Origin: Rickettsiales bacterium
GTDB taxonomy: Bacteria > Pseudomonadota > Alphaproteobacteria > Methylaequorales > Methylaequoraceae
DNA length: 64,000 bases
Assembly: GCA_028407765.1 (NCBI GenBank)
Contig: JAOOJU010000001.1
Span: 14,838 to 78,837, forward strand
Direction: 5' to 3'
Below the pieces are notes generated by a model. The model had not been told where the DNA came from and searched no databases. It saw only the letters and a program-made list of their open reading frames with translations. Made by a program: the position numbers and the translations under genes. Below are positions 14,614-42,940 of this stretch, in pieces. Within the stretch, counting starts at the first letter, position 1. Every line of letters begins with the position of its first letter.

Positions 14614-15174
14614 ATGCTAATAAAAGAAAATAGTTTTCCAGCTCTCGTATTGAATGCAGATTTTCAACCATTGAGCTATTTTCCACTGTCAACTTGGTCA
14701 TGGCAAAATACACTCAAAGCTGTTTTCTTAAATAGAGTAAATGTAGTATCAGAATATAATCAAACAGTAAGTTCTCCCTCGACCGAATTCAAACTACCAA
14801 GTGTTATTTCACTCAAAGATTTTATCCCTTTACCCTCCAAGGCAGCTTTTACAAGATTCAATGTCTTTTTAAGAGACAAGTTTTGCTGCCAATATTGCAG
14901 GACTGTCTATAAAACTGAAGAACTTACTTTTGATCATGTAATTCCAAGATCAAAAGGTGGAAAAACTCAATGGTCTAATGTTGTAACCTCTTGTAGACCT
15001 TGTAATACTAAAAAGGGGAATAAGAGTTTAAAAATGATTGGTATAAAATTAAATAAAGAACCAACCACCCCAAATACTTATGAGCTAAAAGAAATTGGAA
15101 GACTATTTCCTCCTAATTTTCTTCATAAAAGTTGGAATGATTATTTATATTGGGATACCGAACTGGAACCATAG
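14614..15174 (+). CDS. HNH endonuclease-domain protein
   Basis: CCQYC...FDHVIPRSKGGKTQWSNVVTSCRPCNTKKGNK is an HNH motif. Confidence 0.7.
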   Translation: MLIKENSFPALVLNADFQPLSYFPLSTWSWQNTLKAVFLNRVNVVSEYNQTVSSPSTEFKLPSVISLKDFIPLPSKAAFTRFNVFLRDKFCCQYCRTVYKTEELTFDHVIPRSKGGKTQWSNVVTSCRPCNTKKGNKSLKMIGIKLNKEPTTPNTYELKEIGRLFPPNFLHKSWNDYLYWDTELEP

Positions 15175-17024: not shown

Positions 17025-18293
17025 TTGTTGAGATTAATTTTTAAACTTTTACTTAGATTTAAATTAATAAACGTAATTGCTTTTTTCTATTTTCTAAAAA
17101 CAAAAAAACTTTTTCAAAAAAATAGCAACAAAAAATTCAGAATCCTAGCGTTAAGTAGCGGAAGATTTTTGGAAGTTTTAGAGATAATTGAAAAAAATAG
17201 TGATTTCCAAATTTTAACTCTCCCTTTTTCTTGGCAATCAAGATTTTTAAATTTTTTTTATACCCGCGAGAGTAGAAAAAATATTGGACTGAAGACTATG
17301 GATGAAAAAATTCAATCAAAATTTCGCCATTTTTTAAAACTTTTTTTATGTACATATTATAAATTCACAAAAATAGATTTAGTTCTTGGTCCAGCTATTC
17401 ATTACAAACAAGACGTCGACTGGGGTATTGTTTCAAAATCTATCGGAGTACCATATATCGTTATTCACAAAGAAAATTTATATGCATCAGAGGATCATAT
17501 TGCAAATATGACAAAAAAACTCAAGCTGAGACAGCCATTTCGAGGAAGTCATGTAATCGTTCATAATGATATTGTTAAAAAAACTTGGGTTAAAAGTAAA
17601 TTTATAGAGGACAAGGAAATAAGTTCATGTGGAAAATTAACAAATAAAACAAAATCTAAATCTTCAAAAAATTCAATTTTTGATGTAGTTTTTTTTTCTT
17701 TTGGCCCTGGAGTATCCGTTAGCATTGACGGAAATGATATGTTTCCTGAAGAAAAATCTCCAGGCTATCACAACTTAAGCAGAATTACTCACCTTGAAGT
17801 GATTAATTTTGCAATTAAAAATCCCGAAAAAAAAGTGATAATCAAGCCTAAATGGGGAGGTAGATGGATAGATTACATCTATAAATTAGCTCGCGAGGAA
17901 AATATTAAATTAAACGAAATAAAAAATTTAGTGATTAATGAAAATTTAAACTCTTTTAGTCTTATTGAAAATTGTTCTGTTGTTATTTCTTTTAATTCAA
18001 CAACTGTGTTAGAGGCTGGTATAAAAAGTAAGTACGTAATTATTCCATATTTTGAAGAGGCAAAAAAAAATCTTAAAGGTTACGTATGTTTCAAGAATTA
18101 TTTTAATCTTTTTGAAATAGCAGATTCTGGTAAAGATCTTTATAAAAAAATAACCTTAGGTCTAGCAAATCCAAAAAAATACAATAGGTTTTTGCATAGA
18201 AGAAATAAATTATACGAGCTTTATGTCTCTTCATTAAAGGATAACCAAGTAAAAAAATACATCCAAGTGATCGAAAAAAATAAGATTTTGTAA
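17025..18293 (+). CDS. Capsule polysaccharide biosynthesis protein, KpsC/KpsS-like (Capsule_synth domain) candidate
   Basis: C-terminal VVISFNSTTVLEAGIKSKYVII resembles the KpsS/KpsC motif. It is the first gene of the glycan island. Confidence 0.4.
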   Translation: MLRLIFKLLLRFKLINVIAFFYFLKTKKLFQKNSNKKFRILALSSGRFLEVLEIIEKNSDFQILTLPFSWQSRFLNFFYTRESRKNIGLKTMDEKIQSKFRHFLKLFLCTYYKFTKIDLVLGPAIHYKQDVDWGIVSKSIGVPYIVIHKENLYASEDHIANMTKKLKLRQPFRGSHVIVHNDIVKKTWVKSKFIEDKEISSCGKLTNKTKSKSSKNSIFDVVFFSFGPGVSVSIDGNDMFPEEKSPGYHNLSRITHLEVINFAIKNPEKKVIIKPKWGGRWIDYIYKLAREENIKLNEIKNLVINENLNSFSLIENCSVVISFNSTTVLEAGIKSKYVIIPYFEEAKKNLKGYVCFKNYFNLFEIADSGKDLYKKITLGLANPKKYNRFLHRRNKLYELYVSSLKDNQVKKYIQVIEKNKIL

Positions 18294-19431: not shown

Positions 19432-20346
19432 ATGAAGATATGGGTTGCAGGTCATAAAGGAATGGTTGGAAAGTCATTAACCGCCATTTTAAAAAAACAA
19501 TATAAAACAGTTCATACAAACTCTCGAAAAGAATTGGATTTGACTGATATGAATGCAGTCAGAAATTTTTTAAGTACAACAAAATTTGATTGGATATTTA
19601 TTACCGCAGGAAAGGTCGGAGGGATAGAAGCAAATATTAACTTCCCATTAGACTTCTTGTATGAAAACCTCATGATAAATAATAATATTTTAAGAGCTTC
19701 CTATGAAATGAAAATTAAAAAAGTTTTAGTTTTAGGTTCAAGCTGTATGTATCCAAAGAATGCCTCACAACCTATTAAAGAAAATTCAATCTTAACTGGC
19801 TCTGTTGAACCAACTAATGAGGGGTATGCGATTTCAAAAATTGTATCAACTAGGCTTGCAAAATTTTACTGTGAACAATTTAATTCTAATTTTATCTCCG
19901 TTATCCCCTCTGCAACTTTTGGCCCAAATGATAATTTCAATAATTCATTTAATCACGTAATTCCTGCTTTAATTAAAAAATTTCATAATGCTAAAGTAAA
20001 TAAAAGAAATTCTGTAGAGGTTTGGGGTAGTGGAAAGGCTCTTAGAGAGTTTTTATTCGTTGAAGACCTTGCTGAGGGCTTGATTTTTCTGATGAAAAAT
20101 TATAACGACCCTTCTCCTATAAATCTTGGATCAGGTGAAGAAATCACAATTCAAGGATTATCATATGAAATATCAAAAACTATTGGATATTCCGGGAAGA
20201 TAGTTTTTAATATTTCAAAACCTGAGGGTGTAAAACGTAAATTGCTTGATTCAAGTAAAATAAAAAAATTGGGCTGGAGACCTAAGTTTAATTTAAGGCA
20301 AGGTTTGCAGGTTACTTATGAAAAATTTAAAGAAAATAGTTTATGA
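19432..20346 (+). CDS. fcl: GDP-L-fucose synthase family (GDP-4-keto-6-deoxymannose 3,5-epimerase/4-reductase; Fcl/ColC-like)
   Basis: MKIWVAGHKGMVGKSL...ELDLTDMNAVRNFL is a typical Fcl/WcaG N-terminus. Length is 304 aa. Confidence 0.75.
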   Translation: MKIWVAGHKGMVGKSLTAILKKQYKTVHTNSRKELDLTDMNAVRNFLSTTKFDWIFITAGKVGGIEANINFPLDFLYENLMINNNILRASYEMKIKKVLVLGSSCMYPKNASQPIKENSILTGSVEPTNEGYAISKIVSTRLAKFYCEQFNSNFISVIPSATFGPNDNFNNSFNHVIPALIKKFHNAKVNKRNSVEVWGSGKALREFLFVEDLAEGLIFLMKNYNDPSPINLGSGEEITIQGLSYEISKTIGYSGKIVFNISKPEGVKRKLLDSSKIKKLGWRPKFNLRQGLQVTYEKFKENSL

Positions 20347-20373
20347 ATATATCTAAGTATAAGGCTTTTAATA

Positions 20374-21093
20374 ATGAATACATTTAAAAATACTGGTCAA
20401 GCTTTAAAAGAAAAAGGTTTTGAAATTATTCAAGATGTTTTAACTCATGAAGAATGTGATATTCTCATAAGTGATGCTCACTCTGTAGTAGAAAAAAATA
20501 GGGATGATATAAATAATTTCAGCCCAATTATGCACCCCCATAAAATCGAAGGAGACAATAATTTTTTAAAAATGATGAAAAAGAAAACCATAATTAGCTT
20601 GATAGAAAATATTATTAAAGGTCCAGTAATGGGGCTTCAAAGTCAATTTTTCTTTATGCCTCCTAACACTCCAGGGTTTCAACCTCATCAAGATGATTTT
20701 TATGTAAAATCTCAAGACCCAGAAGGTTTTGTTAGTTTATGGATCGCCCTTACAAAAATAAACAAACTGAATGGTCCTTTAAGCCTCTGGCCTGAGAGTC
20801 ATAAAAAAGGTATCTTTGAAGTTAGACGAAAAGAAATAAAAGAAAAAGAAAATACAGATAAAAATGGTTCAGAACTTTACTCAGTTATTCCTAAAGAGTT
20901 GACTGACTCTCAGGAGTTAGAAATTAATAGAGGAACTGGGGTTTTGTTACATAGCAGAGTACTTCATTCTTCCAGAAAAAATTTATCAAAAAGCTTTAGA
21001 TATGCTATTTTATATACATTTATTAGAGAAGGTCTTAAGTTTAATCCAGGATCTCATGCTAAAAGAGAGACTATCAAATTGGATTCAATATGA
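20374..21093 (+). CDS. Phytanoyl-CoA dioxygenase (PhyH) family Fe(II)/2-oxoglutarate oxygenase
   Basis: HQDDFYV (HxD) and distal LHSRVLHSS histidine. Length is 239 aa. Confidence 0.6.
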   Translation: MNTFKNTGQALKEKGFEIIQDVLTHEECDILISDAHSVVEKNRDDINNFSPIMHPHKIEGDNNFLKMMKKKTIISLIENIIKGPVMGLQSQFFFMPPNTPGFQPHQDDFYVKSQDPEGFVSLWIALTKINKLNGPLSLWPESHKKGIFEVRRKEIKEKENTDKNGSELYSVIPKELTDSQELEINRGTGVLLHSRVLHSSRKNLSKSFRYAILYTFIREGLKFNPGSHAKRETIKLDSI

Positions 21094-21986
21094 AGAAACC
21101 TAATATCGGTCATATGGGAATAACTCCGACTTTTAAAAGTAAGAAAGATCAAAGATCTTTTATTAAGGATTGGAATAATTCAGATGTGATGAAAAAGATT
21201 TTTAAAAAAGACTTCATTTTTGGATCTTTTGACTTTAATAGGTTTAACTTTCAAAAAATCATAATAGAAGAACTCTTAAATTTAAAGATAGTTGCTCCAG
21301 ATAGTTTTAAAGAAATTGACTCCAATCTAGCAAATCTTCATAAAATTATTCCACAAAAAGATAAAGAAATTGATGACAATGAAATTAATAATATTAGTAA
21401 ACTATTTTATACAAATAATAAAAGCTTCTTGAATATGTATAAGTCTTTTCTTGAAGAAGTTATTGCACCTTTATTTCCTGATAGAATATATTTTCAAAAA
21501 CAACCTACTATCAGATTTAATTTTCCTTCATCTCAATCATTAAAATATAATAAAAGATTTCATTCAGATATTATGCTAGGTCATCCACCAAAAGAGATAA
21601 ATTTATGGTTTAGTTTGACGGATGCATTTTCCTCTAATTCATTAAGGTTTATCAATCTGGAGAGAAGTAAGTTATTTTTTGATGAATGTAAGAGTAGTTA
21701 TGATATTTTAGCCGAAAAAGTTCAATACGATGAAGAATTTAAAAAGAAACTTGACCTTAAGTCACATTCAATCGACATGAAGTATGGTCAATACTTTTTA
21801 TTTGACTCAAGGTGCCTGCATTGTACCCAAAGAAATACTACAAATAAAACTAGAATAAGTATCGACATAAGAGTAATTCAGGATGTTGATTATAAATCTT
21901 TATCAAGAAAATATATTGGGACAGGGAGAAGAAAGAGTGAATTTAAACCAGGAGATTACTATCATTCAAAAAGACTAAAGTTATAA
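21090..21986 (+). CDS. Hypothetical protein, possible second Fe(II)/2OG oxygenase
   Basis: HSDIMLGHPP (HxD) with a later CLHCT histidine. Its start overlaps the preceding gene (ATGA). The call is weak. Confidence 0.3.
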   Translation: MKKPNIGHMGITPTFKSKKDQRSFIKDWNNSDVMKKIFKKDFIFGSFDFNRFNFQKIIIEELLNLKIVAPDSFKEIDSNLANLHKIIPQKDKEIDDNEINNISKLFYTNNKSFLNMYKSFLEEVIAPLFPDRIYFQKQPTIRFNFPSSQSLKYNKRFHSDIMLGHPPKEINLWFSLTDAFSSNSLRFINLERSKLFFDECKSSYDILAEKVQYDEEFKKKLDLKSHSIDMKYGQYFLFDSRCLHCTQRNTTNKTRISIDIRVIQDVDYKSLSRKYIGTGRRKSEFKPGDYYHSKRLKL

Positions 21987-22160
21987 TTATAATCAAATAA
22001 AAATATTATTCTTTTAGTGAAATATTTAGCTTATTTATCAGGAATATAGTATTAATTAATAAACTCACCTGTAGAATGCTTATTTTAGAACAATGTGTTA
22101 TTAAGTTAAAATTATTCTTAGATGAACGTGATTTATATGTACCTTAAATAAAATACTTGC

Positions 22161-23102
22161 ATGGTTAAAAAAAAATTTGATTTTGAATTAGCGTATTATA
22201 AATACAGGAAAATTCGTAGGACTGAAGAAAAAATAATAGAAATTTATGATACTGATAAAATTAAAAGTCCAGTTCATTTATCAATTGGTCAAGAGTCTAT
22301 TGCAGTAGGTTGTTCTTTAGCGACATCAAAAGATGACGTAATTTTCAGCAATTACAGAGGTCATGCACATTTTATAGCACACGATGGAAACTATAAAGCC
22401 TTTTGGTGTGAACTTTTCGGAAAGTCAGGAGGACTCTCATCAGGCAAAGCAGGTTCTATGCACCTAGGCGATTTAAATGCAAATTTTATGTTTACTTCTG
22501 CAATAGTAGCTAGTTCAGTTTCTGAAGCAGTGGGTTATGCTCTGGCCATAAAAATGAAGAATTATAAAAAAAATGTTATTTGTTATCATGGCGATGGCGC
22601 GATGGATGAAGGTGTATATTGGGAATCAATAAATTTTGCCACACTAAAAAAGCTTCCGATACTTTTCATTTGTGAAAATAATAAATATGCTATTTACTCT
22701 CATCAAAAAGATAGAATGACAAATGAAAACACAATTCAGAGGGTTAAAAGTTTTGGTATAAAAGCAAGAAAAGTGAAGAATCAGACCTTGTCTATTTATA
22801 CAGAGGTTAAAAATGCGTTAAATAAAATTAAAAAAAGAAATGAGGTTTGGTATTTGGAAATACCCACTACAAGAATTAATGATCATGTAGGAATACAAAA
22901 TGATTCATACCTCAAATATAGAAACCCTAGAATTATTGATGAAGCAATTAGGAAGGATGATTTAAAAAATTTAAGAAAAAAAGTTAAAAATCCCAATCTA
23001 GTTGATATTAGAATTGAGCAAGAAATTAATCAAGCAATTGATTTTGCTGAAAATGACAAATTTCCAAATAAAAAAGATCTTTTTAAAAATGTTTTAGCCT
23101 AA
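22161..23102 (+). CDS. Thiamine-diphosphate-dependent dehydrogenase E1 component, alpha subunit (PDH/acetoin-DH E1-alpha family)
   Basis: SIGQESIAVGCSLA...YRGHAHFIAHDG and the ThDP-binding region GDGAMDEGVYWESINFA. Confidence 0.7.
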   Translation: MVKKKFDFELAYYKYRKIRRTEEKIIEIYDTDKIKSPVHLSIGQESIAVGCSLATSKDDVIFSNYRGHAHFIAHDGNYKAFWCELFGKSGGLSSGKAGSMHLGDLNANFMFTSAIVASSVSEAVGYALAIKMKNYKKNVICYHGDGAMDEGVYWESINFATLKKLPILFICENNKYAIYSHQKDRMTNENTIQRVKSFGIKARKVKNQTLSIYTEVKNALNKIKKRNEVWYLEIPTTRINDHVGIQNDSYLKYRNPRIIDEAIRKDDLKNLRKKVKNPNLVDIRIEQEINQAIDFAENDKFPNKKDLFKNVLA

Positions 23103-23103
23103 A

Positions 23104-24159
23104 ATGAAGAAAAAAAGTAAACAATTGAATTATGGTGAAGCTATTTATGAAGGTTTATATCAATCTATGTTAAAAAACTCTGATATTTTTATTTATGGAC
23201 AAGGTGTAGATGATCCAAAGGGTCATTATGGTACAACTAAAAATCTGCATACTATTTTTGGAAAATCGAGATGTTTTGATACCCCAATTTCTGAAGATAG
23301 TTTGACCGGAATCGGAATAGGTGCAGCTCTGGCAGGTTTGAGACCAATATTTGTTCACCAAAGAATGGATTTCTTAATGCTATGTATGAACCAATTGATA
23401 AATATGGCTTCAAAAATTCATTATATTTCAGATGGAAAACAGAAAGTTCCATTTGTTGTAAGAGCATCAATAGGTCGAAGTTGGGGACAGGGTGCTCAAC
23501 ATAGTCAATCATTGTACTCTTTTTTTGCCCACGTGCCAGGACTCAAAGTTGTTGCTCCAACCACTCCCTATGATGCCAAGGGTACGATGATTTCAGCAAT
23601 TAAAGATGATAATCCAGTTATATTTGTAGAACATAGGATGCTTTATAAAAATATTGGGTATGTTCCAGATGACACATATGAAGTAAGAATAGGAAAGGCT
23701 AGACTTATTTGTAAAGGAAGTGATGTTACTTTATTAGGTGTTAGTTTTACTGTTACTGATTGTTTGAAAGCCAAAGATCTTTTGCTAGAGAAAAATATAA
23801 AGGCAGAAGTTATCGATCTTTTATCAATTGCACCTATTGATTTTGTTACAATTAAGAAATCAATAAAAAAAACAAAAAAAATAATCATTGTTGATAATGA
23901 TTGGCAAAATTGTGGTATTGCATCTGAGATATTAGCACGTATTTTTGAAACTATAGATCCAAATGAAGAAAATATTATAGGAAAAAGGTTAGGATATAAG
24001 TTTACACCTTGTCCAACAACAAGGTGTTTAGAGGATGAATTCTATCCTTCTCCTAAATCCATTGCTTTTGAAGCCTATAAAATGGTTACTAATAAAATTG
24101 ATTGGGTTCCAAGGGAAATTGAAAGTTCTGAAATTAAAGAGTTCAAAGGGCCATTTTAG
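23104..24159 (+). CDS. ThDP-dependent E1 component beta subunit (transketolase-like C-terminal)
   Basis: NYGEAIYEGL...YGQGVDDPKGHYGTTKNL is a typical E1-beta N-terminus. It sits immediately after the alpha subunit. Confidence 0.7.
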   Translation: MKKKSKQLNYGEAIYEGLYQSMLKNSDIFIYGQGVDDPKGHYGTTKNLHTIFGKSRCFDTPISEDSLTGIGIGAALAGLRPIFVHQRMDFLMLCMNQLINMASKIHYISDGKQKVPFVVRASIGRSWGQGAQHSQSLYSFFAHVPGLKVVAPTTPYDAKGTMISAIKDDNPVIFVEHRMLYKNIGYVPDDTYEVRIGKARLICKGSDVTLLGVSFTVTDCLKAKDLLLEKNIKAEVIDLLSIAPIDFVTIKKSIKKTKKIIIVDNDWQNCGIASEILARIFETIDPNEENIIGKRLGYKFTPCPTTRCLEDEFYPSPKSIAFEAYKMVTNKIDWVPREIESSEIKEFKGPF

Positions 24160-25427
24160 TGAAAAAAAATCAGTTATATAAAGCTATACAAAAAAAATGG
24201 GAAAAGAAAAATAGAGAGCATAACTTTCTTAAAAAAAAAGACTTGGAAGTAAAATTACATCAACCAACTTTTGGAGTGGATGAAATAACTGCTTTTACAG
24301 AACAGATGATAACAACAAATGTGACTATGGGAAAGGAAGTAGAAAACTTTGAAAACAATTATAGTAACTATTTAAAAACAAAGTATTCCGTTTCAAGTAA
24401 TTCAGGCTCATCTGCAAATCTTTTGATGATTGCAGCACTCTGTAACCATTATAATAAAGATAAACTAAATTTTGGAGATGAGGTTATTATTCCAGCTTTA
24501 ACATGGTCTACTACTATGTTTCCTCTCACACAATACGGTTTAAAACCTGTTTTTGTTGATTGTGATTTAAAAACCTTAAATATAGATCTTAATAAAATTG
24601 AAGGTGCTATTGGTCCTAAAACTAGAGCAATTTTTATTGTACATATTTATGGTAATCCCTGCGATATGTCTGGTATTATTTCAATCTGCAAAAAGTATAA
24701 TTTACTTTTAATTGAAGACTCATGTGAGTCAATGGGAGCATACTTCAATAAATCTCCTGTAGGTAGTTTTGGTTTAATGAGTAGTTTTAGTTTCTATTTT
24801 TCACATCATATAACATGTATGGAAGGAGGGATAACAGTTACAAAAGATAAAAGCTTATTTGAATCAATGAAAATGATAAGATCTCATGGATGGATAAGAA
24901 ATATAAAAAATAAGGCTAAATGGAAAAAAATGGGTCCTAATATTGACCCTAAATTTTTATTTGTTAATGAGGGTTATAATTTAAGACTAACAGAACCACA
25001 AGCAGTTATGGCGTCTATTCAATTAAAAAAATTAGACTTGTTTGTAAAAAAGAGAAGAAAAGCAGCAACATATTATAAAAAGAGATTTAAAGAATTTGAA
25101 GATAACTTTTTCTACCAAAATGAAACAAGAAATGCTTATCATTCATGGTTCGGGTTTCCAATCACAATAAAAAATAGAAAAATTAAATGTAAAATTTTAT
25201 GTGATTACTTAAACAGAAATGGAATTGAAACTAGGGCAGTTGTTTCAGGAAATTTGGCCAAACAGCCCGTTACAAAACTTTATCCAAATAGAGTAAGTGG
25301 AAAGTTAGAAAATGTGAATTATATTATGAATAACTCCTTTTCCATTGGGTGTCATCAAGATATTACTTATAATGAAATAGATTATGTATATATGAAAATT
25401 AAACGATTTCTGAAGAAAACCCTATGA
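24159..25427 (+). CDS. DegT/DnrJ/EryC1/StrS-family PLP enzyme with Lys-to-His active-site substitution; predicted GDP-4-keto-6-deoxy-D-mannose 3-dehydratase (ColD-like)
   Basis: The motif is SFSFYFSHHITCMEGG. The position six residues before EGG, which holds the Schiff-base Lys in aminotransferases, is His here, as in ColD/E1 3-dehydratases. It overlaps gmd (ATGA). Confidence 0.65.
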   Translation: MKKNQLYKAIQKKWEKKNREHNFLKKKDLEVKLHQPTFGVDEITAFTEQMITTNVTMGKEVENFENNYSNYLKTKYSVSSNSGSSANLLMIAALCNHYNKDKLNFGDEVIIPALTWSTTMFPLTQYGLKPVFVDCDLKTLNIDLNKIEGAIGPKTRAIFIVHIYGNPCDMSGIISICKKYNLLLIEDSCESMGAYFNKSPVGSFGLMSSFSFYFSHHITCMEGGITVTKDKSLFESMKMIRSHGWIRNIKNKAKWKKMGPNIDPKFLFVNEGYNLRLTEPQAVMASIQLKKLDLFVKKRRKAATYYKKRFKEFEDNFFYQNETRNAYHSWFGFPITIKNRKIKCKILCDYLNRNGIETRAVVSGNLAKQPVTKLYPNRVSGKLENVNYIMNNSFSIGCHQDITYNEIDYVYMKIKRFLKKTL

Positions 25428-26437
25428 AAAAAAGAGTTTTAATTACCGGCATCACTGGAATGGTTGGCTCTCATTTACTTGATTTTTTGTATGAAAATAC
25501 TGACTGGGATTTATTTGGTTTAATAAGATGGAGAAGTCCACTTGAAAATATACAAGAGCACTTAAATAATATAAATCACAAAAAACGTATTTTCCTAGAA
25601 TATGGAGATATTAGAGATACTCAGTCGGTAAATGAAATTATTAAAAGTGTAAAACCTGATTATGTATTTCATCTTGCTGCTCAAAGCTTTCCAAAAACAA
25701 GTTTTTCCAGTCCCCTAGATACTTATGAAACAAACATCAAAGGAACTACTAATGTATTGGAATCGATTAAAAACTATTCAAATAAAGCAAAGGTTCATAT
25801 TTGTTCTTCATCTGAAGTCTTTGGCAGAGTTAAAGCGGAAGCTATCCCAATCAAAGAAGATACAAATTTTCACCCTGCTTCACCATATGCTATATCTAAA
25901 GTTGGTACAGATTTAATTGGAAGGTTCTATGCTGAAGCTTATAAAATGTGTGTAATTACAACAAGGATGTTTACACATACTGGTCCCAGAAGAGGTGATG
26001 TTTTTGCAGAATCAAGTTTTGCAAAACAGATTGCTCTCGCTGAAGCTGGTCTGAGTGACGATATAATTTATGTTGGCAATCTAGATAGTTTAAGAACTAT
26101 TGCTGATGTTAGAGATGCTGTTAAAGCTTATTTTATGCTTCTAACAGTAAATCCAATTAGTGGCGAATACTATAATATTGGTGGGAGCCATACTGTTAAA
26201 ATTTCAGAACTATTAAATGACCTTATTGGTCTATCAACTAAGAAGGATAAATTAAAAATTAAAGTAGACTCTGATAGATTAAGACCGATTGATGCTGATC
26301 TTCAAGTTCCAGATATAGAAAAATTTAAAAAACATACTGGTTGGAAACCAATAATTAAATACGAACAAACATTAATTGACTTGTTAAATTATTGGCGTAA
26401 TGTGGTAGCATCCAAGGGCATACAATTAAAAAGATAA
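25424..26437 (+). CDS. gmd: GDP-mannose 4,6-dehydratase
   Basis: KRVLITGITGMVGSHLLDFL and CSSSEVFG...PASPYAISK, the T/E/YxxxK catalytic region of Gmd-type dehydratases. Confidence 0.7.
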   Translation: MKKRVLITGITGMVGSHLLDFLYENTDWDLFGLIRWRSPLENIQEHLNNINHKKRIFLEYGDIRDTQSVNEIIKSVKPDYVFHLAAQSFPKTSFSSPLDTYETNIKGTTNVLESIKNYSNKAKVHICSSSEVFGRVKAEAIPIKEDTNFHPASPYAISKVGTDLIGRFYAEAYKMCVITTRMFTHTGPRRGDVFAESSFAKQIALAEAGLSDDIIYVGNLDSLRTIADVRDAVKAYFMLLTVNPISGEYYNIGGSHTVKISELLNDLIGLSTKKDKLKIKVDSDRLRPIDADLQVPDIEKFKKHTGWKPIIKYEQTLIDLLNYWRNVVASKGIQLKR

Positions 26438-26462: not shown

Positions 26463-27434
26463 ATGATTATTGTAAGATCTCCTCTACGAGTCTCGTTTTT
26501 TGGTGGAGGAACTGATTATGAAAAATGGTTTTCAAAAAATAAAGGAGCCTTCTTATCAATGGCAGTTGATAAGTATTGTTTCGCTGTAATAAAATATACA
26601 ATTCATCTATCAAACTTTAATTTCAGGGTATCATGGAAACAAGTAGAAGAAGTAAATCAGATTGAAAAAATCAGACAACCAATAGTAAGAGAAGTTCTCA
26701 AATATTTCGACTATAGGAAATCAGCTGAATATTTTTATATGGCTGATGTCCCAGCACAATCTGGTTTAGGCTCAAGTGCTTCTTATACTGTTGCGATGAT
26801 AAAAGCGATATCATCAATCAAGAAAATTAGTTTGACAAAAACAGAAATTGCGAATACTGCATACATAATCGAAAAAGAAAAATTACAGGAAAATACGGGG
26901 ATTCAAGATTCAATTGCTTCTACTTTTGGGGGCTTTAATTTTGTTGAGATTGAAAAGGATAAAAGCTTTAAAGTAACAAACTGTAATTTAAGTAAAGAGT
27001 TTAAAGAAAAATTCTTAGAAAGAATCCTTATAGTTTTTACAGGAATTCAAAGATCCTCATCAAAACAAGCTGGTAAAACTTTAAGTGCAATGGAGAGTAA
27101 TAATGAAAAATTTAAGAAAATTTATGATATGACCTATGAGGGTTTTAAAATTCTAAAGTCATTAGATTTAGATTCCTTCGGCAAACTTATTGATGAAGCA
27201 TGGAAGATCAAATCTTCTTTGAATAAAAGTATGTCAAATTTAAAAATAGATGAATTATATGAGTTTTCAAAAAAAGAAGGTGCATTAGGAATGAAACTTT
27301 TAGGTGCTGGAGGTGGTGGTTTCGCGGTAATTTTCTTTAAAGAGGGGAAAAAAGAATCGTTTAAGAAAAAAATAAAGAAATATAAGTTCATAGAAGTAAG
27401 TATGGATGAAGAAGGTACCAAAATAATTGAATGA
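26463..27434 (+). CDS. GHMP-family sugar kinase (D-glycero-D-manno-heptose 7-phosphate kinase HddA-like)
   Basis: MADVPAQSGLGSSASYTVAM (GHMP motif 2) and C-terminal LGAGGGGF. Confidence 0.65.
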   Translation: MIIVRSPLRVSFFGGGTDYEKWFSKNKGAFLSMAVDKYCFAVIKYTIHLSNFNFRVSWKQVEEVNQIEKIRQPIVREVLKYFDYRKSAEYFYMADVPAQSGLGSSASYTVAMIKAISSIKKISLTKTEIANTAYIIEKEKLQENTGIQDSIASTFGGFNFVEIEKDKSFKVTNCNLSKEFKEKFLERILIVFTGIQRSSSKQAGKTLSAMESNNEKFKKIYDMTYEGFKILKSLDLDSFGKLIDEAWKIKSSLNKSMSNLKIDELYEFSKKEGALGMKLLGAGGGGFAVIFFKEGKKESFKKKIKKYKFIEVSMDEEGTKIIE

Positions 27435-27593: not shown

Positions 27594-28418
27594 TTAATTA
27601 GAGGTAAGACCATCTCTAACGAAAAAAACATCGAACATTGCAGTAGCATTTCTTCCTGACTCATATTGTGGGTGTGCTACTCCTGCCAAACGGTATCCAT
27701 ATGGAAACAGAGAGTTTTCGTAATCTGAAAAATATACTTTCCTATCAAGATAATGTTCAGTAGATATAAATTCAGAAAAAATGACATCTATTTTATTTTC
27801 TTGAAGTGTTTTTTTGGCACCTTTCAAACAATCAATCTCAAATCCCTCCAGATCTATCTTTAATAATTGTATTTTTTCTATATCATTGTCTTGGACAAAT
27901 TTATCGATTGATATTACTGGAATCTTTTGTTTTCCCAAAATAAAATCTTTTTTTGTTGCATTCGGATTTTTCTTCCGCATAAATTCTATGTATTGTTTAA
28001 CCAAATCAGAATCCAGATTAGCTTCATAGAAACTAGACATTGTCCTTTTAGCATAACGGTAAAAAGTTAATTCATCTTGCTTTGACCCTAAACCAATTGG
28101 ATAAGAGTTCAGTTTTGCATTGGGAAATACTTTCGATAATATATCAACGTTTCTGTCAAGTATTTCATATATTTCTGGATTAGGCTCAAAACTATAAATA
28201 GTTGCATTAGGAAAAAAATTTACAAAAGTAGCAAGAGTGGCACCAGTATGAGCACCTCCATCTATAATTGTAGGCTTATCTGTTTTTAAATACGGTTTAA
28301 TTAATTCAACATCACTTATTCTACTGATTATATTTCTTGTTGGAATAGTTGTAGAGTGAAAATATAGTTTTTTTAACCCTAATTTAACCATTAGCCTATT
28401 AGCAAATTTTTTCAGCAT
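27594..28418 (-). CDS. FkbM-family SAM-dependent methyltransferase
   Basis: IIDGGAHTGATLATFVNFFP is the FkbM motif. Confidence 0.65.
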   Translation of the reverse strand: MLKKFANRLMVKLGLKKLYFHSTTIPTRNIISRISDVELIKPYLKTDKPTIIDGGAHTGATLATFVNFFPNATIYSFEPNPEIYEILDRNVDILSKVFPNAKLNSYPIGLGSKQDELTFYRYAKRTMSSFYEANLDSDLVKQYIEFMRKKNPNATKKDFILGKQKIPVISIDKFVQDNDIEKIQLLKIDLEGFEIDCLKGAKKTLQENKIDVIFSEFISTEHYLDRKVYFSDYENSLFPYGYRLAGVAHPQYESGRNATAMFDVFFVRDGLTSN

Positions 28419-28527: not shown

Positions 28528-29232
28528 ATGTACTCAATAATATTAGCTGGAGGTTTTGGAAAGAGACTAGGAAAAATTACAAAGAAAGTCCCCAAACCTC
28601 TTCTGAAAATTGGAAAAAAACCCTTTATTTTGTATTTATTGGACTCACTTGAAAAACATGGATTTAAATATTCAATAATATGTATTCACTATTTAAAGAA
28701 ACAATTTAAAGATATTTTATCAAAAAAAACCAGTAAAATACAAACCCTCTTTTCAGAAGAAGAAACTCCATTGGGCACTGGAGGAGCCATCAAAAAAGCA
28801 TTATCTTTAGTAAGATCCTCCGAGCCAGTATTAGTACACAACGGTGATAGTTTTACAAACTTAAATTACAGAAAAGTACTTGAATCACATATAAAAAGTA
28901 AAAAAAATTTAACTATTGTTCTTAAAAAAATAAAATCATGTAAAAGGTATGGTCAGTTTATCTTTGATAAAAAATTTCAAATAAAGGAATTTGTGTATCC
29001 AGGAAAAAATGAAGCTGGTTACATTAATATTGGTGTCTATATAGTTTCTAAAGACCTTTTTAAAAAAGATGATTTATCAAAAAACTTTTCATTTGAAAGC
29101 GACTTCTTAGTCCATAAAATTTTAGAAATTAATCCAAATATTTTTATTACAGAAGATTATTTTATCGATATTGGCACTCCTAAAGATTTTAAAAGAGCAT
29201 CACTGGAACTAGAAAAAAAAATAAAATCTTAA
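28528..29232 (+). CDS. Sugar-1-phosphate nucleotidyltransferase (HddC-like)
   Basis: MYSIILAGGFGKRLGKITKKVPKPLL is the NTP-transferase signature. Confidence 0.7.
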   Translation: MYSIILAGGFGKRLGKITKKVPKPLLKIGKKPFILYLLDSLEKHGFKYSIICIHYLKKQFKDILSKKTSKIQTLFSEEETPLGTGGAIKKALSLVRSSEPVLVHNGDSFTNLNYRKVLESHIKSKKNLTIVLKKIKSCKRYGQFIFDKKFQIKEFVYPGKNEAGYINIGVYIVSKDLFKKDDLSKNFSFESDFLVHKILEINPNIFITEDYFIDIGTPKDFKRASLELEKKIKS

Positions 29233-29963
29233 TAACCGCCAGTTACAGAAATAGTCGCACCACATAAATAACTTGCTTTTTCAGATAAAAGCCAAACAAC
29301 ACTATTAGCCACATCAATTGGTTTACCTAATCTGTTCATAGGAATTACTTTTTTTTTTTTATTTAATGGTTCATCTAAAATCGGGTCATCAAACCCAATA
29401 ATTCCTGGCCTAACTATATTTATTCTAATATTATTTTTTGAAAATTCCTTAGCACTACTCTTAGATAAACTTTCAAGTGCTTGTTTGGACGCAAGATAAG
29501 CTGCTATATTGTAACCTCCTGTTTTAATTGCATTAGAGGATATATTTACAATACTTCCACCGTCTGATATTTTCATTCTTTTTATAGATTCTTTCATTAT
29601 TTCAAAACTAGCGTAAAAATTTATTTTAAAAATCTCTTCAACTTCAGGACCTTTGATATTTATAAAGGAAACTCTATTACCAGAAATTGCTGCATTATTA
29701 ACAACACTACTTAAATTATTCCACCTTTTATCTATTTCTAAAAACATAGTTTTTATCTCACTTTGATTTCTAAGATCCGCCTTTATTGGAAAAGCATCGA
29801 CACCTATTTTTTTTATAGACTGAGCTAAAAAATTAACTTTTTTAAAGTTTTGGTTATAGTGAAGAGCAATTGAAAACCCTTCTTTTGCTGCTTTTATACA
29901 AATTTCTGATCCAATATTACCAGTTGAACCAGTAACTAATAAAGTTTTATGTCTGGTTATCAT
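29229..29963 (-). CDS. Short-chain dehydrogenase/reductase
   Basis: LLVTGSTGNIGSEI and the YxxxK region. Confidence 0.7.
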   Translation of the reverse strand: MITRHKTLLVTGSTGNIGSEICIKAAKEGFSIALHYNQNFKKVNFLAQSIKKIGVDAFPIKADLRNQSEIKTMFLEIDKRWNNLSSVVNNAAISGNRVSFINIKGPEVEEIFKINFYASFEIMKESIKRMKISDGGSIVNISSNAIKTGGYNIAAYLASKQALESLSKSSAKEFSKNNIRINIVRPGIIGFDDPILDEPLNKKKKVIPMNRLGKPIDVANSVVWLLSEKASYLCGATISVTGGY

Positions 29964-31076: not shown

Positions 31077-32165
31077 ATGAAAAAAAAGATTGAAGATGGA
31101 TCAAACACCTTATCTCTATTAGATTATGAATTATTATACACTAATGGGTTTTTTAATTCTATTATTGCAAAATCATTTGCAAAAAATCCTCTGAGTATTA
31201 TTGATGTCGGAGCAAGATGGGGTATTAACCAGATGTTTGAACCTATTGCAGGAGTCACACATGCTCTTTCATTCGAACCAGACCCTATTGAATCAGAACT
31301 AATAACTGAAAAAGAAGAGAGAAAAGGAATCTGGTTTAAAAGTGAAGTTTTACCATATGCACTTAGTGATAGAAATGAAGAAATAAAACTCTATTTACTT
31401 AAAAGACCAAATAATAGCTCTATTTTTAAGGTAAAAAAGCAGGTTTATAATAGATATAAGCTTAGGGGATTTGAGCTTGAAAAAGAAATAATAGTTCCAG
31501 CAATAACACTAGATAATTTTTTTCTAAAACAAAAAAAGGTATCTCCTAACCTTGGTGAAATAATAAAACTGGATACACAAGGTGCAGAACATAAGATTTT
31601 AAAAGGAGCCAAAAATGTAATAAAAAATAATACAATGTGTATTATTTGCGAAGTTTCCTTTTTTTCCCCTTATGAAAAGGCAAGTAGTTTAACTGATATT
31701 ATTGATACCTTAAAATCAATGGGTTTTCATCTATATGGTTTTCTTGATTATAAATTTCGTTCTACGAAAAGGTTCAATAAAAAGAATAGTATTGGAAGGG
31801 AGAGATTAATGCAGGCAGACGCAGTATTCTTTAAAGATCCATTTGAAAAAAAAAATAAGTTGATAAAAGAAAGTGATAGAAAGAAAGAAGTTATATTTAT
31901 AGCATCATTGTTATTGGGTTATTTTGATTTTTCTTGTGAAATTCTAGAATCTTTGAGTTATTCTTCGGTTGAAAAGAAAACTCTCAGGATATTAATAAAT
32001 AATTTAGCGTTCAAGGACTTATCTTATATAAAAAAGGAAACTAAAAAACTACAGAGTTATCTGAATAGTAACGATAAAAAAGCATTTCTAGAACTGGGAA
32101 AAATTACTGATAGTAGGAGAGATTTTTTTTCTTATCATGATTTATATGTAAACTATGAAGAATAA
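31077..32165 (+). CDS. FkbM-family methyltransferase-like protein
   Basis: IIDVGARWGINQMFEP is an FkbM-type motif. Length is 362 aa. Confidence 0.5.
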   Translation: MKKKIEDGSNTLSLLDYELLYTNGFFNSIIAKSFAKNPLSIIDVGARWGINQMFEPIAGVTHALSFEPDPIESELITEKEERKGIWFKSEVLPYALSDRNEEIKLYLLKRPNNSSIFKVKKQVYNRYKLRGFELEKEIIVPAITLDNFFLKQKKVSPNLGEIIKLDTQGAEHKILKGAKNVIKNNTMCIICEVSFFSPYEKASSLTDIIDTLKSMGFHLYGFLDYKFRSTKRFNKKNSIGRERLMQADAVFFKDPFEKKNKLIKESDRKKEVIFIASLLLGYFDFSCEILESLSYSSVEKKTLRILINNLAFKDLSYIKKETKKLQSYLNSNDKKAFLELGKITDSRRDFFSYHDLYVNYEE

Positions 32166-32228: not shown

Positions 32229-34037
32229 ATGAGATTAAATCATTTGAAAGAAATTTGGAGTCTTCTACTTTTTAAAGAGAAGAGATCTTTTGTTTTTGTT
32301 ATTTTTCTTTCATTAATCCTTCCATTTGTTGAACTTTTTGGAATAGGTTCGGTTTTTGTTTTTGTAGATATAATTCTTAATCCTACAAATATTGAAAATT
32401 CAAAAATTATGTCAAAGTTAAATGAATTTTTAGAAATTAAAGATCAAAAAAAATTAATTACTATTCTTGGTTTTCTTGTAATTATATCGCTTATTATAAG
32501 AAATGTTTTTATTGCATTTAATTTATGGATGGTAACGAGTTTTTCCTTAAATGTGTCAGCTGGTTTGTCATCAAGATTATTAATTAGTTATTTAAAGTTT
32601 CCCTATCATTTTTTCATGGAAAATAATCATGCCGTTCTTCTAAAAAACATAAATACTGAAGCACAGTTGGTTGCTACGGGTTTCCTCATTCCATTACTTA
32701 AAATCTTATCTGGAAGTTTTGTATTTATTGTAATTTTCATAAGCCTACTTTTTTATAATTTCAATTCAACAATAATAATTTTCTCAACATTAGGAATTAT
32801 TTATTTTGTAGTTTATTATCTTTCAAAAAAGGTTTTTACGCAATATGGTAAAGAACGATTTGAATTAAATCAAAAAAGATTTGAATATACCTCACAATTA
32901 ATTAGTGGTATACAGGAAATAAAAGTCCTTGGTAGAGAAAATCTTTTTTATAAAAAATGTAAAAAAATTTTTTTCAAAATTGCAGCTCTTGCAATTAAAA
33001 CATCCATTGTTCCAAGATTGCCAAGGCTTGTAATGGAAATACTAATATTTGGCGGCATAGTATTGTTAACTTTATATAAGTTTTCTTATGATGCCAGTTC
33101 AATTGATCAATCAACGATAAGTTTGATTGCTTTATTTGGAATGTCCAGTTATAGATTAATGCCTTATTTGGACGGTTTATTTTTAGCTTTAACACAAATA
33201 AAATTAAATAGCACAGTAGTAGATGTAATGAAAAAACATCTAAAAGACCCTGAAAAAAATAGTTTATCTCCAGGAAAGAGAAATGTTATACCTTTAAAGA
33301 AAAGTGTATCACTGAATGGAGTTTTTTTTAAATATAGAAATAGGAAAAAATCTTCTTTAGAAAAACTTGACTTAGAAATAAAATATGGGAAATCCGTGGC
33401 ATTAGTTGGTCCTACAGGTTCTGGGAAGTCAACGATAATAAATCTCCTTTTAGGTCTTTATTTACCAGACAAAGGCACATTAAAAGTTGATCAAAAAAAG
33501 ATTGATAAATCTAATGTTCGTTCATGGCAAAAATCAATTGGTTTTGTTCCTCAAGAGATATATTTAAGCGATGAAATTGTAAAAAATAATATTGCATTTG
33601 GTATTCCTGATCATGAAATCGATATGGAAAGAGTTATTCAAACCTCAAAAATGGCAGGTATATATGATTTTATTTCAAATGAACTACCAGAAAAATTTAA
33701 TACATTAATTGGTGAAAGAGGTTCAAGAATTAGTGGAGGTCAAAAACAAAGAATCGGAATTGCCCGAGCATTATACCATGATCCCTCTTTTATTGTTTTT
33801 GATGAAGCTACAAGTTCATTGGATAATATAACAGAAAGATTAATCTCTGAAACAGTTTTCAAAACATTTAAGGATAAAACTATAATCATGGTGGCTCATA
33901 GAATTTCCACAATTAAAAATTGTGATTTAATTTATGTTATTAATAAGGGAGCAGTTGAAGCTAAGGGAAGCTATGACCAACTTCTAAAAAACAGCGATCT
34001 ATTTAAAAATATTGTGCTGGGGAAGAAAAAAATATAA
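32229..34037 (+). CDS. ABC exporter, fused permease/ATPase (MsbA/glycan-flippase type)
   Basis: Six N-terminal TM helices, Walker A GPTGSGKST, ABC signature LSGGQKQRIGIARAL and Walker B IVFDEATS. Confidence 0.8.
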   Translation: MRLNHLKEIWSLLLFKEKRSFVFVIFLSLILPFVELFGIGSVFVFVDIILNPTNIENSKIMSKLNEFLEIKDQKKLITILGFLVIISLIIRNVFIAFNLWMVTSFSLNVSAGLSSRLLISYLKFPYHFFMENNHAVLLKNINTEAQLVATGFLIPLLKILSGSFVFIVIFISLLFYNFNSTIIIFSTLGIIYFVVYYLSKKVFTQYGKERFELNQKRFEYTSQLISGIQEIKVLGRENLFYKKCKKIFFKIAALAIKTSIVPRLPRLVMEILIFGGIVLLTLYKFSYDASSIDQSTISLIALFGMSSYRLMPYLDGLFLALTQIKLNSTVVDVMKKHLKDPEKNSLSPGKRNVIPLKKSVSLNGVFFKYRNRKKSSLEKLDLEIKYGKSVALVGPTGSGKSTIINLLLGLYLPDKGTLKVDQKKIDKSNVRSWQKSIGFVPQEIYLSDEIVKNNIAFGIPDHEIDMERVIQTSKMAGIYDFISNELPEKFNTLIGERGSRISGGQKQRIGIARALYHDPSFIVFDEATSSLDNITERLISETVFKTFKDKTIIMVAHRISTIKNCDLIYVINKGAVEAKGSYDQLLKNSDLFKNIVLGKKKI

Positions 34038-34106: not shown

Positions 34107-35039
34107 ATGTTAGTTAAATTTTTAAAATTATTTAAGAAAGATTTATTATTCCAAAAAATAGATCAAAAATTTAAGAGTCTATTTCCGGACACCTTTATTG
34201 GGCAACAGATATATTTTAATTTCTCAAAGATTTTTAATTATTACTCTTACAATAAGCGAAAAAGTATCTTTAAGAAAAAATTCTCTGATATTCCTGACGG
34301 CTTGAGTATTTTAGATTATGAGGGATATAAAATAAATAAATTAGGAGATGATTTTTCTAAAGAAATTTTAAAAAAAATAAATTTAAAAAAAATTATTGAC
34401 CCGAATTTAAATTTCAAGAAAGACTTCTTAAAAAACTACCCTATAGACATCTTATCAAAAGATTTTGCAGGGCTAAAAAAATTAGTTATTTCTCATGATT
34501 TTATAGCTCCTATCATAAATTATCTTGGATCAGTCCCTTTGTTGTGGACTTGTGAGGTATGGGTATCACCTAACAAGTCCTTTGAAACTGGTAGAAGTCA
34601 AGAATTTCACCTAGATGGAGAGGATATTAGACAAGTAAAATGTTTCATTCCTCTTGAAGATATCACAGAAGATTCTGGACCATTAAATATAATTAACGCA
34701 GAAAATACAAAAAATATCTTCAACAAACTTCAAAATGCTAAGAAAATAAATTTTAGACATCAAAAAGTTTCTGATGAAGATATGTATAAAGTAACCAGCA
34801 AGAAGAATACAGTTACCCTTTTAGCAAAAAAGGGAGATGTCATCATGTTGGATACCTCAAGGTGTTATCATTATGGTAGTCGTCCTGGTAAAAAAATAAG
34901 AAAGTTACTTTTTCTTCAATTTTTTTCAATTAATTCAAAAAAACTTTCTATTTTCCAAAATTTCCACAATAACAAATACAATAACATAGAAGGAAATATT
35001 TTCTTATTCCAGAAATTAAACCATAATACAACAAATTAA
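34107..35039 (+). CDS. Hypothetical protein, PhyH-like Fe(II)/2OG oxygenase candidate
   Basis: QEFHLDGED (HxD) and distal CYHYGSRP. The call is weak. Confidence 0.3.
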   Translation: MLVKFLKLFKKDLLFQKIDQKFKSLFPDTFIGQQIYFNFSKIFNYYSYNKRKSIFKKKFSDIPDGLSILDYEGYKINKLGDDFSKEILKKINLKKIIDPNLNFKKDFLKNYPIDILSKDFAGLKKLVISHDFIAPIINYLGSVPLLWTCEVWVSPNKSFETGRSQEFHLDGEDIRQVKCFIPLEDITEDSGPLNIINAENTKNIFNKLQNAKKINFRHQKVSDEDMYKVTSKKNTVTLLAKKGDVIMLDTSRCYHYGSRPGKKIRKLLFLQFFSINSKKLSIFQNFHNNKYNNIEGNIFLFQKLNHNTTN

Positions 35040-42937: not shown

Positions 42938-42940
42938 ATT

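Follow-up and report, generated by a model that had tools for sequence, protein, structure and literature searches.

The window analysed here, a 64,000-nt stretch of contig JAOOJU010000001.1 from a Rickettsiales bacterium, carries a surface-glycan cluster of about 18 kb (approximately 17.0 to 35.0 kb; all positions are those of the window). Within it lies a DegT-family gene (24159-25427, + strand) whose product has a histidine in place of the lysine that binds pyridoxal phosphate (PLP) in aminotransferases. This gene belongs to a conserved cassette whose core comprises genes for the alpha and beta subunits of a thiamine diphosphate (ThDP)-dependent E1-type enzyme, the His-type DegT protein, a 4,6-dehydratase, a GHMP kinase, a nucleotidyltransferase and at least one short-chain dehydrogenase/reductase (SDR). 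We tentatively propose that the cassette encodes a pathway, widespread in marine and soil Gram-negative bacteria, that would supply surface glycans with a nine-carbon sugar branched at C4, GDP-3,6-dideoxy-4-C-(1-hydroxyethyl)-heptose or a tailored derivative of it. The assignments derive from Pfam, NCBIfam and PDB profile scans of about 50 open reading frames (ORFs) of the window; cut-offs quoted below are the curated NCBIfam equivalog thresholds of each named model.

The DegT protein is very probably a sugar 3-dehydratase of the ColD type, and a distant member of that group, rather than an aminotransferase or an enzyme of the E1 (RfbH/DdhC) type; its family, the histidine and the missing iron-sulfur motif are all evident in its sequence. 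The 422-aa product, translated from a GTG start, matches Pfam PF01041 (DegT_DnrJ_EryC1) with 300.8 bits over residues 41-414 and contains SFSFYFSHHITCMEGG, which has the histidine at the PLP-lysine position as an earlier note on this DNA had claimed. In HMMER alignments to Escherichia coli ColD structures, the first His of its 'SHH' falls in the column occupied by the wild-type His of 2gms, by the Asn of the H188N mutant 3b8x and by the Lys of the H188K mutant 2r0t. The S187N/H188K mutant chain marks that same column, and 'FSHHIT' of the window aligns with 'YSHHIA' of ColD. Since it shares a column with both the wild-type and the mutant chains, this residue occupies the position of ColD His188, as the earlier note had suspected. 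The equivalent of ColD Ser187 is also kept. A 15-sequence alignment shows no variation at S215, H216 or H217, and the S-H-H triplet recurs in 47 of 50 members of the family encoded in other genomes, so the Lys-to-His change is not a sequencing accident. This change is the defining difference between nucleotide-sugar 3-dehydratases and aminotransferases (PMC8987622).

A conventional sugar aminotransferase making a 4-amino-4,6-dideoxy sugar would have the same DegT fold, and many sugar aminotransferase structures indeed match the protein with 100-150 bits. Such an activity is nonetheless very improbable: the Schiff-base lysine is a histidine with no other lysine available in the motif, the histidine is kept in nearly all relatives while lower-identity DegT paralogues within the same loci, true aminotransferases, retain Lys at the equivalent place (e.g., ATKVF, GKNLG), and no transamination by ColD or E1 has been observed unless the histidine is mutated to lysine (PMC8987622). 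The earlier call of a 3-dehydratase rather than an aminotransferase is borne out.

The designation as a ColD/E1-type enzyme in that note holds for ColD and fails for E1. With the DegT protein as query, ColD structures score 282-289 bits, ColD 2gms reaching 288.6 bits against 230.6 bits for E1 3bcx, and identity to the ColD of E. coli O55 amounts to 42%. A four-cysteine [2Fe-2S] motif is present in E1 and SpnQ and not in ColD (PMC8987622). The E1 cysteine segment RDCYCAPGCDNTCKK aligns to HGWIRNIKNKAKW in the window, which resembles HGWTRNLPKKNK of ColD; a ColD-like 'HGWIRN' segment replaces the cysteine-rich one, and the CxC...C motif occurs in none of the 50 DegT relatives. No E3-like or ferredoxin-reductase-like partner turned up among the window ORFs scanned for domains. 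A CDP-sugar 3-dehydrase of the E1/E3 (RfbH/DdhC-like) type, which would depend on a [2Fe-2S] cluster and a separate reductase like its counterparts in paratose, abequose and yersiniose biosynthesis, could be argued from its RfbH match (NF011936), the best among NCBIfam models at 343.6 bits, from its 422 aa and N-terminal extension, which resemble E1 (437 aa), and from database relatives, some of which are named 'CDP-6-deoxy-D-xylo-4-hexulose-3-dehydrase'. The RfbH cut-off of 423 is not reached, however, and the neighbouring enzymes all have GDP-sugar relatives; together with the missing cysteines and reductase, this makes an E1/E3 system the least credible of all the alternatives considered. 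What the protein shares with the CDP-4-keto-6-deoxyglucose 3-dehydrase is the DegT fold, the Lys-to-His change and a similar length.

The DegT gene overlaps the downstream dehydratase gene by ATGA, as previously noted (...CTATGAAA at 25422-25429, with the ATG at 25424-25426 and the TGA at 25425-25427). Because of the histidine at the His188 position, the missing E1 segment and the lack of any E3-like reductase in the scans, there are good grounds for the formation of an NDP-4-keto-3,6-dideoxy sugar by a 4,6-dehydratase and then a 3-dehydratase, and this part of the dideoxyhexose route put forward in the earlier note stands. The ColD-type call taken alone is a correct but ordinary refinement of annotation. 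The His-type DegT family is matched at E < 1e-40 by 7794 of 8000 scored database candidates, many of them from Tara and other ocean metagenomes.

The other part of that route, in which a Gmd-type enzyme dehydrates GDP-mannose, agrees poorly with the dehydratase itself (25424-26437, + strand). The protein belongs to the Pfam GDP_Man_Dehyd superfamily (258 bits) yet scores 177.8 bits against the Gmd equivalog TIGR01472, whose cut-off is 415, and shares 30% identity with each of the two Gmd copies of E. coli O55 (from NC_013941.1); E. coli Gmd 1db3 gives 142 bits. Among solved structures, the Campylobacter jejuni GDP-D-glycero-D-manno-heptose 4,6-dehydratase 7US5 is by far its best match, with 344.6 bits and 48.7% identity over 343 aa. 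The alignment spans residues 1-335 and pairs 'CSSSEV' and 'SPYAISK' of the window with 'CSSSEV' and 'SPYSISK' of 7US5 (the SSE and YxxxK motifs). We thus place this NDP-sugar 4,6-dehydratase in the GDP-heptose (DmhA/WcbK/7US5) clade.

The sugar-activation genes are of a similar kind. The GHMP kinase (26463-27434, + strand) resembles anomeric sugar kinases of the HddA/WcbL type: its best PDB matches are the heptose-7-phosphate kinases WcbL 4usm (113 bits) and C. jejuni HddA 4n3o (103 bits), with 3k85 also matched, and it scores 129 bits against NCBIfam HddA (cut-off 600). The sugar-1-phosphate nucleotidyltransferase (28528-29232, + strand), HddC-like and probably a guanylyltransferase, has Yersinia pseudotuberculosis HddC (6jq8/5xhw, 128 bits) as its best PDB match and scores 157.2 bits against NCBIfam HddC (cut-off 300). 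These kinase, transferase and dehydratase matches point to a type of pathway rather than to a proven specificity. No ManB or ManC homologue was found by tblastn in the 64-kb window. Dehydration at C4 and C6 followed by 3-dehydration has been demonstrated biochemically on GDP-heptose (PMC10440746). Homology and the gene content of related loci make GDP-heptose, activated and then 4,6-dehydrated, the probable start of the pathway.

Those related loci were collected by scanning species-representative genomes with the DegT family alignment, which gave 80 loci, to which more were added by contig look-ups. Tblastn with the window proteins and E. coli reference proteins then gave 53 loci with a DegT protein at least 43% identical, and 28 of the 53 are fully flanked, with at least 6 kb on both sides of the DegT gene. 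Homologues of the GHMP kinase are encoded in 24 of these 28 loci, the 7US5-type dehydratase in 22, both ThDP E1 subunits in 21 and the nucleotidyltransferase in 19. Two extended SDRs named after their positions in the window, SDR30066 and SDR18352, recur in 18 and 16 loci, respectively, and are adjoined by classical short SDR homologues in eight. The remaining genes of interest are scarcer: PhyH-family oxygenase homologues occur in seven loci, usually paired with the next oxygenase gene, homologues of that second (TIGR04324-type) oxygenase in six, and the Fcl-like gene in five. The heptose-phosphate genes tell the same story as the dehydratase, with GmhB in 10 of the 28 loci, GmhA in six, ManC in one and ManB in none (14, eight, two and none in all 53). 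In three loci (L030, L024 and L011), a GmhB homologue directly follows the transferase gene, which argues for a 1,7-bisphosphate intermediate and therefore for a heptose.

Loci that combine the ThDP E1 genes with DegT span Alpha- and Gammaproteobacteria, Verrucomicrobia and Marinimicrobia, and carriers of the cassette include two cultured strains, Kiloniella litopenaei (L085) and Skermanella aerolata (L018). In an abundant marine lineage (L004, L006 and L086) the cassette is reduced to seven genes followed by housekeeping genes: E1-alpha, E1-beta, DegT, the dehydratase, the kinase, the transferase and one SDR, SDR30066, with no cupin epimerase. Two loci from Candidatus Odyssella metagenome-assembled genomes, L014 and L017 (approximately 4.9-7.5 kb and 12.2 kb), have two GHMP kinase and two or three nucleotidyltransferase homologues around the cassette, a duplication that suggests a second activated sugar made in parallel. 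In K. litopenaei, the cassette lies directly downstream of a nonulosonic-acid-type set at 1.8-7.8 kb (4,6-dehydratase, DegT aminotransferase, 2-epimerase, formyltransferase, PIG-L and NeuB); since these genes adjoin the cassette, two rare-sugar pathways share one locus.

The ThDP-dependent pair is the most constant neighbour of the His-type DegT gene and lies immediately upstream of it in 21 of the 28 fully flanked loci (75%). In the window, the E1-alpha (22161-23102, + strand) and E1-beta (23104-24159, + strand) genes run directly into it, the E1-beta stop codon overlapping the DegT GTG start by one base (TAGTG at 24157-24161), so that E1-beta and DegT are translationally coupled. E1-alpha, of the two-subunit alpha-keto acid dehydrogenase type (Pfam E1_dh, 164 bits), has a GDG-x26-NN ThDP motif, and all 26 homologues have an intact ThDP motif as well. 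E1-beta contains the Pfam Transket_pyr and Transketolase_C domains. Neither subunit reaches its nearest equivalog: E1-alpha scores 231 bits against the pyruvate dehydrogenase E1-alpha model TIGR03182 (cut-off 394) and E1-beta 282 bits against NF006667 (cut-off 321), its best PDB match being pyruvate dehydrogenase E1-beta at 212 bits, with branched-chain keto acid dehydrogenase at 156. No E2, E3 or lipoyl domain was found in the scans of the window ORFs, and the pair is never accompanied by E2 or E3. A split transketolase was considered and rejected on the E1-alpha scores (E1_dh 164 bits versus Transketolase_N 21.6), and none of the ORFs scanned encodes a single-chain, acetolactate-synthase-like ThDP enzyme of the YerE type.

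Stand-alone ThDP enzymes beside deoxysugar genes have precedents. In yersiniose biosynthesis, YerE catalyses a ThDP-dependent addition to CDP-3,6-dideoxy-4-keto-glucose and YerF then reduces the product (PMC9306805). The two-subunit E1-like enzymes AviB1/B2, Pau11/12 and KbDH-alpha/beta, the last of which has been characterised in vitro, add C2 branches to keto sugars in actinomycete antibiotics (PMC4753412; PMC12247030). Branching of Gram-negative lipopolysaccharide sugars has been attributed to YerE-like enzymes, and the two-subunit type has been described from secondary metabolism (PMC9306805; PMC4753412; PMC12247030). From these precedents and the conserved gene order, a branching of the sugar by the ThDP pair with subsequent reduction of the branch ketone is a reasonable candidate function, although we stop short of calling it probable. 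The seven genes of the minimal cassette give the exact number of enzymes needed to activate, 4,6-dehydrate, 3-deoxygenate, branch and reduce, and therefore fit a yersiniose-type logic; no C4 reductase would be required because C4 becomes a tertiary alcohol.

SDR30066 (30066-31037, + strand; Pfam Epimerase, 141 bits), the proposed branch-ketone reductase, is the sole SDR of L004, L006 and L086. Its best PDB match is Fcl with 90 bits, and its homologues, 49-61% identical, share a conserved 'YFGVGxTK' in which Tyr and Lys are spaced as Y-x6-K instead of YxxxK (26 homologues). SDR18352 (18352-19359, + strand; Pfam Epimerase, 154 bits) is likewise a conserved member of the cassette. Its best PDB relatives are GDP-fucose synthases at 110 bits only, and homologues in distant bacterial classes are 60-73% identical. 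It keeps the Rossmann glycine motif, has 'FAGWAK' replacing YxxxK and no catalytic Tyr, and is devoid of equivalents of Fcl Cys109 and His179. Its conserved FAGWAKRMGELQ is found again in homologues from L007, L008, L015, L019, L020, L022, L023, L025, L031, L032, L039, L040, L048 and L052. The third of these enzymes, a classical short-chain dehydrogenase encoded on the opposite strand (29229-29963, - strand), is FabG-like and a candidate ketoreductase (Pfam adh_short, 142 bits; NCBIfam FabG, 170 bits, below cut-off).

The Fcl-like protein (19432-20346, + strand) resembles the GDP-4-keto-6-deoxy-sugar epimerase/reductases. Its gene starts 3.8 kb upstream of the DegT start, in agreement with the distance of about 4 kb given previously, and its product scores 394.8 bits against the GDP-L-fucose synthase model NF047922 (cut-off 500) and 305 bits against PDB 8du0. 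In a MAFFT alignment with E. coli Fcl, S107, C109, Y136, K140 and H179 are all kept, His179 lying within 'NSHVIPAL'. The earlier note made an Fcl/ColC-like enzyme the last step of the pathway. The family is right, but the protein is closer to E. coli Fcl (42.8% identity, 284 bits) than to O55 ColC, the single ColC reference used (37.2%, 219 bits), six cassette-linked homologues also score higher against Fcl than against ColC, and only about one locus in five has the gene, which adjoins the cassette where it occurs (e.g., L019, L029 and L033). We regard it as an accessory enzyme that could divert the 4-keto intermediate to an unbranched L-sugar and not as an obligatory last step.

Two oxygenase genes separate the Fcl-like gene from the ThDP pair. 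The first encodes a PhyH-family Fe(II)/2-oxoglutarate dioxygenase (20374-21093, + strand; Pfam PhyH, 88.9 bits) and the second a 2-oxoglutarate-Fe(II) oxygenase of the "sporadic carbohydrate cluster" type (21090-21986, + strand; NCBIfam TIGR04324, 76.5 bits, cut-off 150). The PhyH stop codon overlaps the start of the second gene, and at least six related loci have the same pair. Oxygenases that act on nucleotide sugars are unusual; a role in tailoring is probable for both.

Assembled in order, the predicted route would begin with the activation of D-glycero-D-manno-heptose as a GDP sugar by the HddA-like kinase and the HddC-like transferase, with GmhA and GmhB provided from elsewhere in the genome. 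The 7US5-like dehydratase would then produce GDP-6-deoxy-4-keto-heptose, from which the ColD-type enzyme would remove the C3 hydroxyl to give GDP-3,6-dideoxy-4-keto-heptose, its pyridoxamine phosphate (PMP) being regenerated from glutamate with neither an iron-sulfur cluster nor a reductase partner. The stand-alone ThDP E1 pair would decarboxylate pyruvate and add the resulting two-carbon unit to the C4 ketone, creating a tertiary alcohol with an acetyl branch, and an SDR would reduce the branch ketone to a hydroxyethyl group. In this bacterium, the extra SDRs, the two Fe/2-oxoglutarate oxygenases and two FkbM-family methyltransferases may tailor the sugar further. The Fcl-like enzyme would form an optional side branch, possibly making an unbranched L-configured 6-deoxy- or 3,6-dideoxy-heptose. 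Whether the whole route, from GDP-heptose through the 3,6-dideoxy-4-keto intermediate and a ThDP-made C4 branch to reduction and tailoring, is right in outline seems to us an evenly balanced question.

Several points weigh against it, some on the side of the substrate and others on that of the branch. The identity of the substrate is not secured because the nearest named models of the kinase, the transferase and the dehydratase all score well under their equivalog cut-offs. Tblastn found no gmhA or gmhB homologue in the 64-kb window, nor are there any near its closest relatives (L001, L004, L006 and L086), and DmhA-type dehydratases also accept GDP-mannose in vitro. The last two points would equally suit the pathway of the earlier note, in which GDP-mannose is converted by Gmd, a ColD-type enzyme and an Fcl/ColC-like enzyme to GDP-colitose or another 3,6-dideoxyhexose and the other genes are unrelated neighbours. 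That pathway has the ColD-type assignment right, and the Fcl-like protein keeps all five catalytic residues of Fcl and ColC, ColC being itself an Fcl homologue (39% identical). We nevertheless hold it to be quite improbable. The supposed Gmd groups with the heptose enzyme, at 49% identity against 30% to Gmd and far below the Gmd cut-off, and it is GmhA and GmhB, not ManB and ManC, that are encoded in related loci. The Fcl-like gene is missing from 23 of the 28 fully flanked loci. A simple colitose-like end product is further disfavoured by genes that the earlier note overlooked, the coupled ThDP pair, which such a pathway leaves unexplained, and three further SDRs. As for gmhA and gmhB, gmhB lies outside the capsule cluster in C. 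jejuni too (PMC10680097), and their lack here is consequently a caveat and not a contradiction.

On the side of the branch, six fully flanked loci (L015, L022, L025, L031, L032 and L043) have DegT, SDR30066 and SDR18352 without either the E1 pair or the 7US5-type dehydratase. They also have a short SDR and a GT2 glycosyltransferase, often two PhyH-type oxygenases and an ABC-2 transporter, and in some cases the kinase. As these six loci keep DegT in the absence of E1 alpha/beta, the 3-dehydratase is not obligatorily tied to branching and also works in an unbranched context. The reductase assignment of SDR18352 and SDR30066 is uncertain as well, since one has no catalytic Tyr and the other the unusual Y-x6-K spacing, and we know of no glycan that contains such a sugar.

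These observations could be accommodated by an unbranched GDP-3,6-dideoxy-heptose as in C. jejuni HS:5/HS:11. The Fcl-like protein, SDR30066 or SDR18352 would then carry out C5 epimerisation and C4 reduction, and the ThDP pair would have another job, e.g., providing another part of the glycan with an acetyl or hydroxyethyl group or splitting an acetoin-like compound. The evidence for a heptose serves this alternative just as well, DegT and the SDRs do persist where the pair is missing, and an epimerase/reductase with intact catalytic residues is at hand in the window; the pathway itself is biochemically established in C. jejuni (PMC10440746). It accounts less well for a ThDP pair that sits immediately upstream of DegT in three quarters of the fully flanked loci and overlaps its frame here, or for a minimal cassette with a single SDR and no cupin epimerase. 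In addition, every surveyed locus without E1 alpha/beta is also without the 7US5-type dehydratase, which indicates that the two are gained and lost together. On balance, an unbranched product appears rather unlikely, though it is the most serious of the competing explanations for the branched heptose that we propose.

The C. jejuni HS:5/HS:11 route, which proceeds through a GDP-heptose 4,6-dehydratase, a PLP-dependent C3-dehydratase, a C5-epimerase and a C4-reductase (Ghosh, Xiang and Raushel 2023, PMC10440746), is matched by the window in its HddA/HddC-type activation, its 7US5-type dehydratase, its His-type C3-dehydratase free of iron-sulfur clusters and the predicted intermediate, GDP-3,6-dideoxy-4-keto-heptose. 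The C. jejuni C3-dehydratases are, however, 62-67% identical to ColD (PMC10440746), compared with 42% for the protein of the window, which belongs to a clade of its own whose members have about 420 aa and an N-terminal extension. Unlike C. jejuni, the window lacks a cupin C5-epimerase, has no gmhA in its cluster and adds E1 alpha/beta, two atypical SDRs and dioxygenases. With GDP-colitose biosynthesis by Gmd, ColD and ColC in E. coli O55 and Y. pseudotuberculosis, it shares the logic of a PMP-dependent 3-deoxygenation (His188, no iron-sulfur cluster, regeneration from glutamate) and a nearby SDR of the Fcl/ColC family. It differs in having a dehydratase other than Gmd, no ManB/ManC, a likely heptose substrate, and an Fcl-like protein nearer Fcl that is dispensable in most related loci.

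The proposed branching recalls yersiniose A (CDP-glucose 4,6-dehydratase, E1/E3, YerE and YerF) and its ErwE/MygE variants, in which a 3,6-dideoxy-4-keto sugar receives a ThDP-derived acyl branch at C4 and is then reduced. Those systems rely on CDP sugars, an iron-sulfur E1/E3 couple, the single-chain acetolactate-synthase-like flavoprotein YerE and a hexose acceptor, whereas the window is predicted to employ a GDP-linked heptose, a ColD-type enzyme and a two-subunit E1. The alphaKADH2 enzymes (AviB1/AviB2, Pau11/Pau12 and KbDH-alpha/beta), judging from their descriptions, resemble the pair of the window in being separate E1 subunits without E2 or E3, encoded beside deoxy-keto-sugar enzymes; the known ones use pyruvate as donor and place C2 branches at C3 or C4. 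They act on dTDP sugars of actinomycete secondary metabolites, in contrast to the present cassette type, which occurs with GDP-type enzymes in Gram-negative surface-glycan clusters of Proteobacteria and other phyla.

The sugar-modifying genes of the cluster are mostly on the + strand, and the cluster is flanked by housekeeping genes, those for methylmalonyl-CoA mutase, COQ7 and DsbB at one end and that for a glucose/sorbosone dehydrogenase at the other. The window has a uniform GC content of about 29%, and nothing in its composition signals an island. Beyond the genes already described, the cluster encodes two methyltransferases of the FkbM family. The first (27594-28418, - strand; Pfam Methyltransf_21, 77.8 bits; TIGR01444, 84.8 bits) is a likely tailoring enzyme specific to this cluster, and the second (31077-32165, + strand) scores 68.9 and 55.4 bits against the same models. 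A fused ABC exporter resembling PglK/MsbA (32229-34037, + strand; Pfam ABC_membrane and ABC_tran; NCBIfam PglK, 306 bits, cut-off 1000) is a likely flippase for a lipid-linked glycan. It is followed by a 310-aa protein (34107-35039, + strand) without a Pfam or NCBIfam match, which probably belongs to the cluster and whose 46%-identical homologue in L001 is encoded immediately downstream of the kinase gene. Pfam matched none of the approximately 50 ORFs scanned to a glycosyltransferase family. The one faint match is that of a 422-aa protein at the upstream end (17025-18293, + strand), possibly a glycosyltransferase, which has no Pfam match, hits the NCBIfam BFO_1060 glycosyltransferase domain weakly (E 9e-5) and is counted as part of the cluster solely for its position.

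Some 2 kb upstream of the cluster, with an esterase gene on one side and the COQ7/DsbB genes on the other, a solitary HNH endonuclease gene (14614-15174) may indicate where a recombination or insertion has its boundary. Downstream of the cluster, the region 40060-44946 encodes a 664-aa protein with PEGA repeats and an FGE-sulfatase (formylglycine-generating-enzyme) domain, followed by MotA/ExbB-like and von Willebrand A-domain genes, and is unrelated to the sugar cassette. The region 44951-55505 comprises several ORFs of 180-540 aa without a Pfam match (44951, 46607, 47875 and 54306), interspersed with genes for a methyltransferase, a GDSL-like hydrolase and, at 50989-52872, an asparagine-synthase-like amidotransferase. 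In L001, too, a gene of the asparagine-synthase-like kind adjoins the cassette. This region may be a second site of glycan modification.

All of the enzyme families involved are known. What would be new is their combination into a GDP-linked, heptose-based surface sugar branched by a two-subunit E1 enzyme, although a survey of about 120 alphaKADH2 clusters, cited in PMC12247030, may already list such cassettes. The carbon skeleton of caryose (4,8-cyclo-3,9-dideoxy-nonose), a sugar whose biosynthesis is stated to be unknown (PMC9092360), corresponds to a heptose with a C2 unit at C4 and a deoxygenated C3, and may be a candidate lead to the product of the cassette. If the proposal is true, the pair would extend two-subunit E1-type sugar branching to a primary surface glycan and to a GDP sugar, a first in both respects. 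Metabolic reconstructions of abundant marine bacteria will misread the cassette because its genes carry the labels aminotransferase, GDP-mannose dehydratase and pyruvate dehydrogenase in current annotation. Should the branching be real, the known surface sugars of bacteria would come to include a GDP-linked, C-branched higher-carbon deoxysugar, and ThDP biocatalysis would acquire a new clade of ketone-accepting carboligases. The cassette recurs across phyla, and its two cultured carriers make the prediction directly testable.

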